From: a virus
Taxonomy: Duplodnaviria > Heunggongvirae > Uroviricota > Caudoviricetes
Strand: one strand, 5' to 3'
IMG/VR virus record: IMGVR_UViG_3300018478_000173
Length of the DNA: 4,325 nt
Shown: piece by piece, positions 1 to 3,651 of the stretch
Position numbering within the stretch: position 1 is the stretch's first letter
Layout: every line of letters begins with the position of its first letter
Notes under the pieces: model-generated
Seen by the model: only the letters and a program-made list of their open reading frames with translations
Database searches by the model: none
What the model was told of the DNA's origin: nothing
Program-made: the position numbers and the translations under genes

Positions 1-32
1 AAGACTATCACTTAAATAAGTGATATTGGTTG

Positions 33-82
33 TCTGGAGATTCAGGGGGCCAGTCTATCTGGAGATTCAGGGGGCCAGTCTA
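33..82. repeat. Perfect tandem direct repeat, 2 x 25 bp (TCTGGAGATTCAGGGGGCCAGTCTA at 33-57 and 58-82); each copy contains a short inverted repeat CTGG...CCAG
   Basis: Read directly from the sequence; both copies identical over 25 bp and exactly adjacent. Sits in an intergenic stretch where all three + frames hit stops within the first 21 nt of the window. Confidence 0.9.
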
Positions 83-335
83 ATAAAACATATCCTGTAT
101 ATTTATGTTGTTACATACAGGCGCTTTTAGTATCTGCCGCACGGCAGTTGTACTTCAGAATAAGATGCTTTTGTGACTGGTGGTGTTGTATCTGGGGTTA
201 GCCAGGAGGCAGGTTCAGAGAGTCCGGTGGTAATTATGTGTATGCAGTGGTTGTTGCTGTACCGTGGGCAAGTTCTGGAACTGGCTTCGTCCATTGTAGA
301 TGATTGTTAGCTGGATATCAGTTACCTCATGGAAA

Positions 336-350: not shown

Positions 351-569
351 AATTCGGTTGATGGACTATTGTCTGATCGATGGAAGTCTTGTAAAAACGA
401 GCCAGCATAGTGAATCCCCCTGTGCGGAGGGGCGTCTGACATGGTCTCCATAGCGATGGTCACAATACGCAGATTCAGTAGTCAGGCTGAATCTACCGGG
501 AGGCACCCGGCACTATGCTGCTTATGGTGTATACATAGCGATCGGCCCCTCTCCGGAGGGGCTTTTTTT
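351..569 (+). ncRNA. Unit 1 candidate structured small RNA (~219 nt): 5' leader, closing helix 404-412/511-519, hairpin 417-432 (CCCCT-GTGCGG-AGGGG), divergent core 433-495, hairpin 496-510 (CCGGG-AGGCA-CCCGG), tail, terminator
   Basis: Closing helix is 9 perfect base pairs (AGCATAGTG with CACTATGCT) and carries an A-T pair where the other units have G-C. The core contains a strong local hairpin AGATTCAG-N8-CTGAATCT (471-494). No conserved reading frame. Confidence 0.45.
545..569 (+). terminator. Intrinsic terminator of unit 1: 7-bp GC stem (GCCCCTC/GAGGGGC), loop TCCG, then T7
   Basis: Perfect hairpin 545-562 followed by TTTTTTT 563-569. Confidence 0.8.
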
Positions 570-595
570 GTGCGGGAAAAGGCTGTGTTGTTAAG

Positions 596-604
596 TGTTA
601 AATT
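596..604 (+). promoter_or_regulatory. Candidate extended -10 promoter (TGtTAAATT) for unit 2; hexamer is the same as I recall for the lambda pR' -10 (TAAATT)
   Basis: TG 596-597, hexamer 599-604; predicted start near A611 in the conserved CCTCACA context; no canonical -35, as is common for extended -10 promoters. Confidence 0.3.
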
Positions 605-610
605 CCTCAC

Positions 611-838
611 AGTTCAGATGGTTGATGCTTGCCTGTCTGAGGGGGAGTTGTTAAAAAAGTTCTGCATGGTGAATCCCCCTGTGCGGAGGGGCGACTGGTG
701 TGATTTGCATCTTTTCTGTTGTAGGCAATGCAAACGCGGGTTCAGGGACACCAGACTGGACTCACCGGGAGGCACCCGGCACCATGTTCATGATGATACA
801 GATACGCAGTGTCAGCCCCTCTCCTGAGGGGCTTTTTT
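611..838 (+). ncRNA. Unit 2 candidate structured small RNA (~228 nt): closing helix 664-671/780-787, hairpin 676-691, divergent core 692-764, hairpin 765-779, terminator 815-838
   Basis: Closing helix GCATGGTG with CACCATGT (one G-U pair). Core contains nested hairpins (CTGGTGT 697-703 with ACACCAG 749-755; TTTGCAT 706-712 with ATGCAAA 730-736). Confidence 0.45.
815..838 (+). terminator. Intrinsic terminator of unit 2: same 7-bp stem, loop TCCT, then T6
   Basis: Hairpin 815-832 followed by TTTTTT 833-838; the only change from unit 1 is in the loop. Confidence 0.8.
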
Positions 839-865
839 ATGCAGGAAAAACGCTGTGTTGTGAAA

Positions 866-874
866 TGTTAAATT
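866..874 (+). promoter_or_regulatory. Candidate extended -10 promoter (TGtTAAATT) for unit 3
   Basis: TG 866-867, hexamer TAAATT 869-874; same position in the unit as in units 2 and 4. Confidence 0.3.
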
Positions 875-880
875 CCTCAC

Positions 881-1098
881 AGTTCAGATTGTTGATGCTT
901 GCCTGTCTTACGGGGAGTTGTTAAAAAAGTTCTGCATGGTGAATCCCCCTGAGCGGAGGGGCATATCAGCGCAGGTGTTTCTACTCTATCCTTTCTGTGC
1001 GGGTTCAGGTGCTGATACTGAACTCACCGGGAGGCACCCGGCATCATGCATATGGTTAACAGACACGTAGCGAAGCCCCTCTCCGGAGGGGCTTTTTT
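881..1098 (+). ncRNA. Unit 3 candidate structured small RNA (~218 nt): closing helix 933-941/1042-1050, hairpin 946-961 (loop GAGCGG), divergent core 962-1026, hairpin 1027-1041, terminator 1075-1098
   Basis: Closing helix TGCATGGTG with CATCATGCA (9 bp including one G-U). Core has the stem TATCAGC...GCTGATA. Confidence 0.45.
1075..1098 (+). terminator. Intrinsic terminator of unit 3: same 7-bp stem, loop TCCG, then T6
   Basis: Hairpin 1075-1092 followed by TTTTTT 1093-1098. Confidence 0.8.
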
Positions 1099-1115
1099 AT
1101 GCAGGGAAAAGGCTG

Positions 1116-1124
1116 TGTTGTGAA
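1116..1124 (+). promoter_or_regulatory. Candidate extended -10 promoter (TGtTAAATT) for unit 4
   Basis: TG 1116-1117, hexamer TAAATT 1119-1124; same position in the unit as in units 2 and 3. Confidence 0.3.
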
Positions 1125-1130
1125 ATGTTA

Positions 1131-1349
1131 AATTCCTCACAATTCATGAGGTTGATGATTGTCTGATTGATGAGGAGTTTGTTAAAAAAAACGGGCATGG
1201 TGAATCCCCCTGTGCGGAGGGGTGATATCGTATCATTTCCTGTGTGGCCGACTGATATCACGGACATTTGTTCACCGGGAGGCACCCGGCACCATGCAGT
1301 ATACAGAGATTAGGCATACATCCAGGCTCCTCATCGCAGGAGCCTTTTT
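1131..1349 (+). ncRNA. Unit 4 candidate structured small RNA (~219 nt): closing helix 1195-1202/1290-1297, hairpin 1207-1222, shortened core 1223-1274, hairpin 1275-1289, non-homologous terminator 1325-1349
   Basis: Closing helix GCATGGTG with CACCATGC (8 perfect bp). The 5' conserved block carries small insertions relative to units 2 and 3. Core has the stem TGATATC...GATATCA. Confidence 0.4.
1325..1349 (+). terminator. Intrinsic terminator of unit 4: different sequence, same architecture (GGCTCCT-CATCGC-AGGAGCC then T5)
   Basis: 7-bp stem 1325-1331 with 1338-1344, T-run 1345-1349. Replaces the GCCCCTC hairpin used by units 1-3. Confidence 0.7.
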
Positions 1350-1581: not shown

Positions 1582-3546
1582 ATGGCATTTAAACACTACG
1601 ATGTGGTCAGGGCGGCATCGCCGTCAGACCTTGCTGAACGACTGACACAAAAACTGAAGGAGGGCTGGCAGCCATTTGGCAGTCCGGTGGCCATCACGCC
1701 TTATACCCTGATGCAGGCCATTGCGGCGGAAGGTGATGTCACCACACCAGTGGCGGTGACCGGTAATGAGGGTAAGGCGGTGGCTGTCAGTGCCACCAGC
1801 GACCCGGAGTATTACTTTGTTGTGGTTCTGGCAGGGCAGTCAAATGGCATGTCGTATGGTGAAGGTCTTCCGCTGCCGGAGACATATGACCGTCCGGACC
1901 CGCGTATTAAGCAACTGGCGCGCCGCAGTACGGTGACACCGGGCGGTGTCGCCTGTAAATATAACGACATCATTCCGGCGGACCATTGTCTGCATGATGT
2001 GCAGGACATGAGCCGTCTTAACCATCCGAAAGCGGAACTGTCAAAGGGGCAGTACGGAACCGTGGGGCAGGGGCTGCATATTGCCAAAAAACTGCTGCCG
2101 TTTATACCGGCGAATGCGGGCATTCTGCTGGTTCCGTGCTGTCGTGGTGGTTCAGCGTTCACCACCGGAGCTGATGGCACATACAGTGACGCTGGCGGTG
2201 CCTCGGAGAATTCAGCGCGCTGGGGTGTGGACAAGCCGCTGTATAAGGACCTTATCGGTCGAACAAAAGCAGCACTGAAGAAGAACCCGAAAAATGTGCT
2301 GTTTGCCGTGGTGTGGATGCAGGGGGAATTTGATTTTGGCGGTACGCCGGCAAATCACGCAGCACAGTTTGGTGCGCTGGTTGATAAATTCCGTGCAGAC
2401 CTGACGGATATGGCAGGTCAGTGCGTTGGTGGCTCTGCTGGCGGTGTTCCCTGGATATGCGGGGACACGACGTATTTCTGGAAGCAGAAGAACGAATCCA
2501 CGTACCAGACGGTGTACGGCAGCTATAAAAACAAAACGGAAAAGAATATCCATTTCGTACCGTTCATGACGGATGAGAACGGGGTGAATGTGCCGACGAA
2601 CAAACCGGAAGAAGACCCGGACATTCCGGGTATCGGGTATTACGGTTCGAAATGGCGTGACAGCTCAGCCACCTGGACGTCACAGGACAGGGCGAGCCAT
2701 TTCAGCACCTGGGCACGCCGGGGGATTATTTCCGACCGTCTGGCAACGGCGATTCTGGTGCACGCCGGGAGAACCGCTGAATTCATTACCGGAAAACAGC
2801 CTGATATGGTGAGGCCCACCGTACCTTCCGGTGAAGGTCCGGAGAGAGAGGCGGAAGCCCCGGCCAGTAAGCGTACCCTGATGAGTCTGCTGGCATCCGG
2901 CGAAGACCTGGCATCACAGGGCTGGCGCTATTATCACAAACCGGCGGGCGGAGACAGTGTTAACAAAAACATTGCTGAAGCGGTGGTCAGTGATGCGGGG
3001 GCTACGGGAGGTAAGGCTCTGCAACTGAACAAACCGGAAAACCACATCTGGTTTCTGGAGCATGATGCAGCCGGACAGGGGGCGGAGTTACTGAAGAAGG
3101 GCGGACGTGTGAGCGTACGGTTTAAGTTGCCGGGTTCACTGGTGCCGAATCAGTTTGCCCTGGGCATTTACTGGCAGTTGTCGTCCCTGCCGGAGGGGGT
3201 GATGCTGTCAGGAGAAGGTAACGATATGCTGATGTCTTTCTTCCTGCAGACGGATACGACGAACCTGAACGCGATGCATCACAGGAAGCCGAATGCGAAG
3301 CTGGATACATTCGGGGTCTTTGATAACGGATGGCACACGCTGGCTTTTGAGTTTGCCGGAAACAACAGCATTCAGGTGACACCAGTACTGGATGAGAAAC
3401 GGGGAGCGGCGTTCACACTGGTGAAGTCACCGGCATCGGGGGCGGTGGACAAACTGCAACTGACCGATATATCAAAATCGGCGACGTATACGCTGCTGAT
3501 TGACAGCATTGCGGTGGAAGTGAACAGCACAGACACTGCGGCATGA
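1582..3546 (+). CDS. nanS-p: Prophage-encoded sialate O-acetylesterase (NanS-p-like), 654 aa: N-terminal DUF1737-like domain, SGNH/SASA esterase domain with the GQSN motif, and a long C-terminal domain
   Basis: Intact 1965-nt ORF. GGAGGA at 1573-1578 just upstream of ATG 1582. GQSN at residues 85-88 (nt 1834-1845), characteristic of the sialate O-acetylesterase branch of SGNH hydrolases. The N-terminus MAFKHYDVVRAASPSDLAERLTQKLKEGWQPFGSPVAITPYTLMQAIAAEG matches, from memory, the DUF1737 N-terminal domain of NanS-p proteins of EHEC lambdoid prophages. Function is from recalled homology, not a search. Confidence 0.9.
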   Translation: MAFKHYDVVRAASPSDLAERLTQKLKEGWQPFGSPVAITPYTLMQAIAAEGDVTTPVAVTGNEGKAVAVSATSDPEYYFVVVLAGQSNGMSYGEGLPLPETYDRPDPRIKQLARRSTVTPGGVACKYNDIIPADHCLHDVQDMSRLNHPKAELSKGQYGTVGQGLHIAKKLLPFIPANAGILLVPCCRGGSAFTTGADGTYSDAGGASENSARWGVDKPLYKDLIGRTKAALKKNPKNVLFAVVWMQGEFDFGGTPANHAAQFGALVDKFRADLTDMAGQCVGGSAGGVPWICGDTTYFWKQKNESTYQTVYGSYKNKTEKNIHFVPFMTDENGVNVPTNKPEEDPDIPGIGYYGSKWRDSSATWTSQDRASHFSTWARRGIISDRLATAILVHAGRTAEFITGKQPDMVRPTVPSGEGPEREAEAPASKRTLMSLLASGEDLASQGWRYYHKPAGGDSVNKNIAEAVVSDAGATGGKALQLNKPENHIWFLEHDAAGQGAELLKKGGRVSVRFKLPGSLVPNQFALGIYWQLSSLPEGVMLSGEGNDMLMSFFLQTDTTNLNAMHHRKPNAKLDTFGVFDNGWHTLAFEFAGNNSIQVTPVLDEKRGAAFTLVKSPASGAVDKLQLTDISKSATYTLLIDSIAVEVNSTDTAA

Positions 3547-3583
3547 TAAAAAAAGCCGCCAGTTACCGGAATGGACTGGCGGT
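3547..3583 (-). terminator. Strong hairpin right after the nanS-p stop, oriented as an intrinsic terminator for the minus strand (A7 on + before the stem, no T-run after it)
   Basis: A-run 3548-3554; stem GCCGCCAGT (3555-3563) with ACTGGCGGT (3575-3583), 9 bp including one G-U; 11-nt loop. It may still slow plus-strand transcription after nanS-p, but it lacks the U-tract of a classic + terminator. Confidence 0.4.
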
Positions 3584-3651
3584 GGTAATACCCATGGAGA
3601 AATATAAAGGAACGATACTTTCGTGCTCTGTTTTTTTAAATGAAAACAGTT

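Follow-up and report, generated by a model that had tools for sequence, protein, structure and literature searches.

The window analysed here, the whole 4,325-nt stretch of IMG/VR virus record IMGVR_UViG_3300018478_000173 (Caudoviricetes), contains four tandem units of about 270 nt, and in every one of them a segment of 8-9 nt just before a first conserved hairpin is complementary to a segment that abuts a second hairpin. The question raised by this locus is whether the two segments form a helix in an RNA and, if they do, what kind of RNA that helix closes. Our analyses indicate that the long-range helix is real and strongly conserved through compensatory mutations. It is not new, as this closing stem is already catalogued for the STnc100/PasD family of prophage small RNAs (sRNAs). 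We consider it probable that the four units are independently transcribed genes for Hfq-associated sRNAs of the STnc100 family (EcOnc27/sRNA103; related to PasD/EcOnc13).

A long-range closing helix in all four units

The helix, here called P1, had been proposed in a preliminary description of this DNA, and its segments were read directly from the sequence of every unit at the positions given there:

404-412, + strand: unit 1, P1 5' strand, AGCATAGTG (RNA AGCAUAGUG), 9 bp with 511-519 (sequence and minimum free energy fold)
511-519, + strand: unit 1, P1 3' strand, CACTATGCT (RNA CACUAUGCU), abutting P5 (496-510)
664-671, + strand: unit 2, P1 5' strand, GCATGGTG (RNA GCAUGGUG) (sequence and minimum free energy fold)
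780-787, + strand: unit 2, P1 3' strand, CACCATGT (RNA CACCAUGU), abutting P5 (765-779)
934-941, + strand: unit 3, P1 5' strand, GCATGGTG (RNA GCAUGGUG) (sequence and minimum free energy fold)
1042-1049, + strand: unit 3, P1 3' strand, CATCATGC (RNA CAUCAUGC), abutting P5 (1027-1041)
1195-1202, + strand: unit 4, P1 5' strand, GCATGGTG (RNA GCAUGGUG) (sequence and minimum free energy fold)
1290-1297, + strand: unit 4, P1 3' strand, CACCATGC (RNA CACCAUGC), abutting P5 (1275-1289)

The finer points of that description were also borne out. Unit 1 has the pair A409:U514 (A409:T514 in the DNA) at the position of a G:C pair in units 2 to 4, and unit 3 has the G939·U1044 wobble; the terminal pair of P1 in unit 2, G664·U787, is a wobble as well. 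In all four units the 5' strand is followed by a 2-nt linker, AA, and then by the first hairpin (P2), and the 3' strand comes immediately after the second hairpin (P5), with 95-116 nt between the starts of the two strands. Eight of eight standard pairs at a fixed register correspond to p ~5e-4 from the composition of the window. The four units are paralogues, and therefore the window by itself yields only one compensatory event.

Compensatory changes among homologues

Homologues were collected with a pattern that fixed the stems of both hairpins (P2 and P5) alone and left the P1 segments and both loops free; the conservation of the P2 and P5 stems is therefore partly an artefact of the collection. 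The search gave 71 loci in species-representative genomes, 120 viral contigs and, in all, 141 distinct domain sequences. A match in Haloplanus (L015) was dropped as a chance match, its loops being unrelated.

The preliminary description had suggested aligning such homologues, on the view that independent variation of the two segments would speak against the helix. In the MAFFT alignment of the 141 sequences (A1) the segments kept their complementarity: P1 was 93.4% paired, and seven of its eight pairs had changed on both sides. One pair, for example, occurred as GC (75), AU (56) or CG (4), and another as CG (46), UA (43) or GC (15). The flanks were found as GCATGGTG/CACCATGC, TGTGGTG/CACCACA, GGTGATG/CATCACC, TGCTATG/CATAGCA, TGCGGTG/CACCGCA and TGCAGCG/CGCTGCA, and covariation was maintained across genera through 24 distinct 5' strands. 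An alignment-free count of the inner 7 bp of P1 gave 95.6% paired versus 80.8 +/- 0.7% with shuffled partners, and 16-19% when the register was shifted by one position in either direction. For the whole structure, 87.1% of cells were paired versus 74.1 +/- 0.4% after shuffling, a value reached by 0 of 500 shuffles, and 38-47% were paired when the partners were slid; all of the whole-structure measures lay above 500/500 shuffles and every slid register. The covariation was heavy in P1 and in the central arm (P4).

The folding programs suggested for checking the helix recovered it as well, since RNAalifold independently predicted P1, P2, P4 and P5, and so did the minimum free energy (MFE) folds of all four units. 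The single-sequence z-scores were modest (-1.5 to -3.3 for the four units), so that the fold could not be established from thermodynamics alone. The wobble pairs were strongly polarised, with 158 G·U versus 8 A·C cells in P4 and 21 G·U versus 9 A·C in the inner six pairs of P1, which indicates an RNA read from the + strand. When the same loci were searched with a covariance model derived from A1, another 48 copies came up, all of them diverged, and their P2 and P5 stems carried compensatory changes. P2 and P5 are thus true helices, with a sequence constraint in addition. The heavy covariation of P1 and P4 in the 141 homologues confirms the earlier proposal of selection on RNA structure.

The units belong to the STnc100 family

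All four units are full-length matches to the Rfam family STnc100 (RF02076), spanning model positions 1-206 of 206, where the gathering threshold is 47 bits:

376-571, + strand: unit 1, RF02076 match, 119.5 bits
635-844, + strand: unit 2, RF02076 match, 140.8 bits
906-1104, + strand: unit 3, RF02076 match, 141.7 bits
1166-1355, + strand: unit 4, RF02076 match, 141.3 bits

The consensus structure line of RF02076 includes an 8-bp long-range helix (GcaUGGUG/CACCAugC). This closing helix, the CCCCU/AGGGG hairpin, the central arm and the CCGGG/CCCGG hairpin of the consensus are present in every unit, together with a 3' Rho-independent terminator and the prophage slot of the family. The model begins about 30 nt upstream of P1, in apparent promoter DNA. 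The units are STnc100 proper and not PasD, as they keep the GCGGA loop of P2 and an intact P5, and the UGUGAG of PasD does not occur in their four linkers.

STnc100 has also been named EcOnc27 in strain Sakai and sRNA103 in strain EDL933, and EcOnc27/sRNA103 has been seen by northern blot and by Hfq cross-linking and analysis of cDNA (Hfq-CRAC), with convergent sRNA pairs located downstream of PR' (PMC4104026, PMC7873438). In EDL933, eleven STnc100 copies were expressed according to RNA-seq and northern blot (PMC5331693). RNAs of the STnc100/EcOnc27 type adjoin Shiga-toxin and lysis genes, and a machine-learning study placed single-nucleotide polymorphisms in one such copy among its top predictors of haemolytic uraemic syndrome (PMC12711010).

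A pseudoknot and two invariant loops

The preliminary description had seen a cloverleaf-like topology that is not a tRNA. The closing stem, the AA linker, the first hairpin, the central arm and the 5-bp last hairpin were recovered by RNAalifold and in the Rfam consensus, and ARAGORN found no tRNA gene in the window; the cloverleaf is nevertheless an incomplete account of the fold, to which a pseudoknot has to be added. A strand 2-3 nt past P2 is complementary to the apical loop of P4:

436-440, + strand: unit 1, pseudoknot 5' strand CUGAC, after P2 (417-432)
471-494, + strand: unit 1, P4 (471-479 with 486-494), loop holding pseudoknot 3' strand GUCAG (481-485)
695-701, + strand: unit 2, pseudoknot 5' strand CUGGUGU, after P2 (676-691)
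738-763, + strand: unit 2, P4 (738-745 with 756-763), loop holding pseudoknot 3' strand ACACCAG (748-754)
964-970, + strand: unit 3, pseudoknot 5' strand UAUCAGC, after P2 (946-961)
1001-1025, + strand: unit 3, P4 (1001-1008 with 1018-1025), loop holding pseudoknot 3' strand GCUGAUA (1011-1017)
1223-1260, + strand: unit 4, counterpart helix, UGAUAUC (1223-1229) with GAUAUCA (1254-1260), nested (MFE fold)

Unit 4 thus has a pairing equivalent to the pseudoknot of units 1 to 3, but a nested one, and its P4 has shrunk to a mini-hairpin, GGAC/GUUC (1262-1273). Among the homologues the paired strands read, for example, GCCAGUC/GACUGGC (L005) and AACAAUC/GAUUGUU (L009). The best-duplex score at the pseudoknot was 6.42, and 5.13 +/- 0.09 when the partners were shuffled; the register was fixed, and the duplexes were of 75 distinct kinds. 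For 83 non-redundant 5' strands the score was 6.06 versus 4.57 +/- 0.11 (z = 13), with controls of 3.9 (intra-molecule) and 4.1 (reversed). Over these two register-free tests z was about 13-15 against shuffled partners. In alignment A1 all seven of the seven pairs showed double changes. The register of the pseudoknot was lost in a model-guided alignment (A2); the claim therefore rests on the register-free tests and the MAFFT alignment. The pairing is of the H-type, in which a hairpin loop pairs with a strand outside its own hairpin, and it has covariation behind it.

The loops of P2 (U-R-N-GCGGA) and P5 (AGGCA) were almost invariant across Enterobacteriaceae and Erwiniaceae, although both had been free in the search. 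The junction bases AAU, GCG and YCA were invariant too, whereas P1, P4 and the pseudoknot varied freely in sequence. The pseudoknot is absent from the structure of the Rfam covariance model and from the one paper found to discuss the fold, and both it and the near-invariant hairpin loops appear to be undescribed so far.

A natural loop-swap variant, useful for probing the role of the invariant loops, was found in E. albertii (L036:5116-5228, - strand). It is the middle member of a three-gene array and keeps P1 (GUGAUG/CAUCAC), while its P2 loop has become GGAA and its P5 loop GAAA, both tetraloops of the GNRA type; the A1-built model scores it at 24 bits.

Transcription units

Each unit has its own promoter-like elements, a linker after the domain and an intrinsic terminator:

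369-570, + strand: unit 1, -35 TTGTCT (369-374), -10 TAAAAA (392-397), predicted +1 A404, domain 404-519
520-570, + strand: unit 1, linker 520-543, terminator 544-563, T-run to 570
629-839, + strand: unit 2, -35 TTGCCT (629-634), -10 TAAAAA (652-657), predicted +1 G664, domain 664-787
From 788, + strand: unit 2, linker 788-813, terminator 814-833, T-run
899-1098, + strand: unit 3, -35 TTGCCT (899-904), -10 TAAAAA (922-927), predicted +1 G934, domain 934-1049
From 1050, + strand: unit 3, linker 1050-1072, terminator 1078-1091 (extended stem 1073-1094), T-run
1159-1350, + strand: unit 4, -35 TTGTCT (1159-1164), -10 TAAAAA (1183-1188), predicted +1 G1195, domain 1195-1297
From 1298, + strand: unit 4, linker 1298-1323, terminator 1324-1345, T-run

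The promoters follow the scheme TTG(T/C)CT, 17-18 nt, TAAAAA and 6 nt, with the predicted +1 at the first base of P1. Of 136 homologues, about 106 have a sigma-70-like -35/-10 pair whose -10 element stops 4-7 nt short of the first base of P1, where the background is 0-3 per offset. The RNA is accordingly predicted to start at P1, so that P1 would include the very 5' end of the transcript. The same is seen in PasD2, whose 5' end as estimated from RNA-seq (NC_011601:741157) is the first G of its P1. After P1, the homologues have a linker of 10-30 nt (median about 24) and then an intrinsic terminator, both variable between lineages. The four linkers of the window, of 23-26 nt, are 54-71% identical to each other.

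A block of about 40 nt upstream of each -35 element (325-368, 590-628, 860-898 and 1120-1158), reading (G)AAATGTTAAAT(T/G)(C/A)CTCACA(A/G)TTC, is common to the four units; an UP element and a regulator site are candidates for it. Past unit 4, in the region 1354-1470, an intrinsic terminator on the minus strand (stem 1384-1362, T-run 1361-1354) converges on the unit 4 terminator. Short anti-sRNAs of the AsxR/AgvB type sit opposite STnc100-type genes at the corresponding position (Tree et al. 2014). For AgvB or AsxR on the minus strand past unit 4, Rfam gave only sub-threshold matches at chance level and BLAST against the E2348/69 loci gave nothing; the element at 1354-1470 may be an uncatalogued convergent sRNA.

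Genomic context and array types

A prophage region of E. coli O22:H8 strain 154 matches the window with 100% identity; the order there is tRNA-Ile/Arg, array, SASA esterase, DUF1378, DUF826, holin and lysozyme. Outside the array the window holds the following:

About 1-85: end of an IS3-family element
1582-3546: SASA-family (NanS-p-like) esterase open reading frame (ORF)
After the esterase: DUF1378 ORF, DUF826 ORF, then the start of a class II holin

The slot (NinG, Q or a DUF1133 protein, the RNA or RNAs, holin, lysozyme, Rz) is conserved in Escherichia, Klebsiella, Kluyvera, Superficieibacter, Erwinia and Pantoea, and fits the arrangement of convergent sRNAs at the 'moron site' given by Tree et al. 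2014. Extra copies lie downstream of the lysis genes in Enterobacter.

Two types of array were found. In gene arrays, represented by the window (145, 146 and 145 nt), Superficieibacter and E. albertii, the spacers are about 105-150 nt including a terminator. In the dense arrays of Pantoea and Erwinia the spacers are 12-32 nt and contain no internal terminator, and therefore these arrays would give multi-domain transcripts, which appear so far undescribed. Prophages of these two genera and one Pantoea plasmid carry 3-7 domain copies (L013:946-1992 (-), L007:3112-4489 (-), L033/L026/L030 and L051:217-739 (+)). In Pantoea L013 the model detects six domains ahead of one shared terminator, and a 258-nt gap may conceal a degenerate seventh. 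In Erwinia L051 three domains lie between one strong promoter and one terminator, and a P21-type holin comes next. The Pantoea and Erwinia arrays suggest a function of the domain itself that has not been considered in the E. coli literature.

Several further observations were made around these loci. E. coli chromosomes and plasmids contain the IS3-family terminus of window 1-85 about 20,900 times, and a perfect 25-nt direct repeat, two copies of TCTGGAGATTCAGGGGGCCAGTCTA (33-82), duplicates the insertion sequence (IS) terminus. In strain 154 an IS transposase lies immediately upstream of the window, and IS-free relatives match only from position 83. A reading of the repeat as a phage Q-binding element was rejected because it falls within this IS end. 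At 3548-3621 on the minus strand there is a weak Esr41-like match (25.1 bits versus a threshold of 102, E = 0.12) with a clear terminator, GCCGCCAGU...ACUGGCGGC-U7, converging on the esterase gene; PasA, PasC or Esr41 has been reported beside PasD in a similar slot (preprint). Kosakonia spp. (L004, L017, L019, L032, L035, L041, L044, L058, L060-L062) have a copy type in common, in which P1 is GGUGAUG/CAUCACC and the promoter, TTGACC-17-TACCGT, is conserved. The L004 copy adjoins a peptidase M3 gene and not phage genes, and the Kosakonia type may be a domesticated chromosomal copy. Near-identical copies of the enterobacterial type on very short contigs of a Mucilaginibacter metagenome-assembled genome (L022) and of Xanthomonas pisi (L068, 888 nt) were set aside as probable enterobacterial contamination.

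Proposed function of the units

Family membership, helices, promoter and terminator geometry and genomic context were all observed in the window, and together they point to four sRNA genes that occupy the 'moron' slot in a lambdoid prophage, with the late-promoter region on one side and the esterase and lysis genes on the other. A sigma-70-type promoter would set the +1 at the first base of P1, and the first 8-9 nt of the RNA would pair with the segment abutting P5, closing a domain of 100-125 nt. Within it would follow, in order, P1, the AA linker, P2, the first pseudoknot strand, a variable insert, P4 with the loop that completes the pseudoknot, and P5. A single-stranded linker of 23-26 nt and an intrinsic terminator with its U-tail would complete the transcript. 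By analogy with PasD, whose seed from RNA interaction by ligation and sequencing (RIL-seq), UGUGAG, sits in the linker just before the terminator, the linkers of the window may provide Hfq-dependent seed pairing with target mRNAs. As the linkers differ among the four units, the array would supply several specificities. P1 may lock the fold and bury the 5' end, which would protect the RNA from 5'-end-dependent decay, and it may present the invariant P2 and P5 loops to a partner. The validated fold, with P1 at +1, the pseudoknot and the two invariant loops, offers precise targets for mutagenesis, and sets the structurally selected parts apart from the variable linker, on which target specificity probably depends.

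Several points weigh against this reading. Expression, Hfq binding, targets, seed position and 5' end are taken from the literature on homologues and not from these four copies. The -10 element TAAAAA is without the consensus final T and was not called by a strict promoter scan. A passive stabiliser leaves unexplained why the P2 and P5 loops and the junction bases are nearly invariant, and the 12-32-nt spacers of the dense Pantoea and Erwinia transcripts have no room for a seed and a terminator per domain. Finally, PasD is functional as an sRNA although it has neither P5 nor the GCGGA loop, and therefore these invariant elements must serve some other role. A purely passive role of the domain is thus hard to reconcile with the invariant loops and the multi-domain transcripts.

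Alternative explanations

Perhaps, then, the 5' domain of STnc100 is an autonomous sequence-specific module, a pseudoknotted four-way junction with two invariant loops that is recognised by a phage or host factor or is processed like a tRNA. Enterobacteriaceae and Erwiniaceae prophages would deploy it singly, in tandem or as transcripts of 3-7 domains, a short way upstream of the genes for lysis. We regard this as a tentative proposal, possible but rather doubtful. The stronger form, in which binding of a protein, RNA or ligand by the domain is the main function of the RNA, arrays work as multivalent decoys or sponges, and the Hfq seed is a secondary addition, is a substantial rival but seems to us unlikely. 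It would account for search-free loops and junction bases that stay invariant while P1, P4 and the pseudoknot vary, for the six domains of Pantoea L013 and the three of Erwinia L051 that share one terminator, and for a pseudoknotted four-way junction more elaborate than the body of a typical Hfq sRNA. However, the domain is not known to have a partner, PasD is abundant and has RIL-seq targets through its linker seed even though P5 and the P2 loop are missing from it, and the P2 and P5 stems were fixed by the search pattern and vary in the diverged copies.

The remaining explanations fit the data poorly. The units could be cis-acting leaders of the late transcript, in which P1 controls the terminator and hence read-through into the esterase and lysis genes in the manner of a riboswitch or attenuator. 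The P1-closed, aptamer-like architecture with a terminator 10-30 nt downstream, and the position of the element upstream of lysis genes in several genera, including the three Erwinia domains and one terminator directly before a holin, would agree with this. Each unit nevertheless has its own promoter with +1 at P1, the linker and terminator sequences are unconserved, those of different lineages being unrelated, and no conserved pairing was seen in which P1, P2 or P5 would take another partner. Some copies lie past the lysis genes (L006) or have non-phage neighbours (Kosakonia), a convergent terminator follows unit 4, homologues accumulate as discrete Hfq-bound RNAs, and the Rfam scan of the window gave no match to a riboswitch family. 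We therefore consider such a leader quite improbable. A riboswitch-type antiterminator was considered because the terminators of units 1 to 3 (GCCCCUC) could pair with the P2 3' strand, and was dropped, as those of unit 4 and of other genera are unrelated.

It seems very improbable that the domain is a tRNA-like structure from which tRNA enzymes such as RNase P excise domains out of precursors, or a tRNA decoy. A 7-8-bp P1 stacked on a 5-bp P5 would, at about 12-13 bp, be as long as an acceptor/T minihelix, and the 2-nt linker past P1, the four-way junction and the GG in the P2 loop are also reminiscent of tRNA; dense arrays resemble tRNA arrays, and the element shares its phage region with tRNA-Ile and tRNA-Arg genes. 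The P5 loop (AGGCA) is however 5 nt long and not a 7-nt T-loop, P1 is followed by neither a discriminator nor CCA, the 'anticodon arm' position is taken by a pseudoknotted, variable element, and ARAGORN finds nothing. In addition, the primary 5' end already lies at P1, so that no 5' processing would be needed in gene-type arrays.

Lastly, the units are tandem duplicates (Tandem Repeats Finder period 270, 81% matches) that could have inherited their complementarity, but a DNA-level feature (an inverted repeat bound by a protein or used in recombination) or a duplication by-product deserves almost no credence, being effectively refuted already by the covariation across genera and the preference for G·U over A·C on one strand, with arms about 100 nt apart that enclose other covarying helices and homologues that are detected as RNAs.

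Comparison with known systems

The units that we interpret as sRNA genes share with STnc100 the P1, P2, central-arm and P5 helices and the terminator, as well as the prophage slot, which lies between the late promoter and the esterase and lysis genes, and the convergent minus-strand terminator past the last unit. Published descriptions of STnc100 concern dispersed single copies, whereas the window has four tandem genes, and the RNA start at P1 and the multi-domain arrays of other genera, like the pseudoknot, are not in the Rfam covariance-model structure or in the published accounts that we found.

PasD is Hfq-dependent and has RIL-seq targets (PMC8550237). PasD1 and PasD2 (EcOnc13, enteropathogenic E. 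coli E2348/69) occupy the same kind of slot as the window units (Q, DUF3927, sRNA, SASA esterase, holin) and have a promoter of the TTGNCT/TAAAAA type, P1 (GCAUGGUG), P4, and a linker with terminator; they also keep the pseudoknot, as AAUGAUC/GAUCAUU. Unlike the window units, they have a CUUG tetraloop in P2 instead of the GCGGA loop, are without the 3' strand of P5, have a longer linker (45 nt), and score below the Rfam STnc100 threshold (41.4 and 37.7 bits versus 47).

With tRNA the STnc100 domain has in common the four-way junction, a 7-8-bp closing stem, 2 nt leading to the first arm and the direct stacking of a 5-bp last arm on that stem, but it has no T- or D-loop consensus, anticodon arm or CCA, and its central element is pseudoknotted. 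For the dense arrays only, CsrB/RsmZ offers a comparison of how such RNAs may work, as there too a structured motif is repeated many times per transcript. The GGAGG in both hairpins had brought CsrA or SD-mimic sites into consideration, but nothing in these analyses, which included no dedicated test, spoke for CsrA binding. Both invariant STnc100 hairpins contain GGAGG/GGA, as in CsrB/RsmZ, although here the GGA lies partly in stems and not in loops, and the repeat is a domain of about 115 nt and not a short hairpin.

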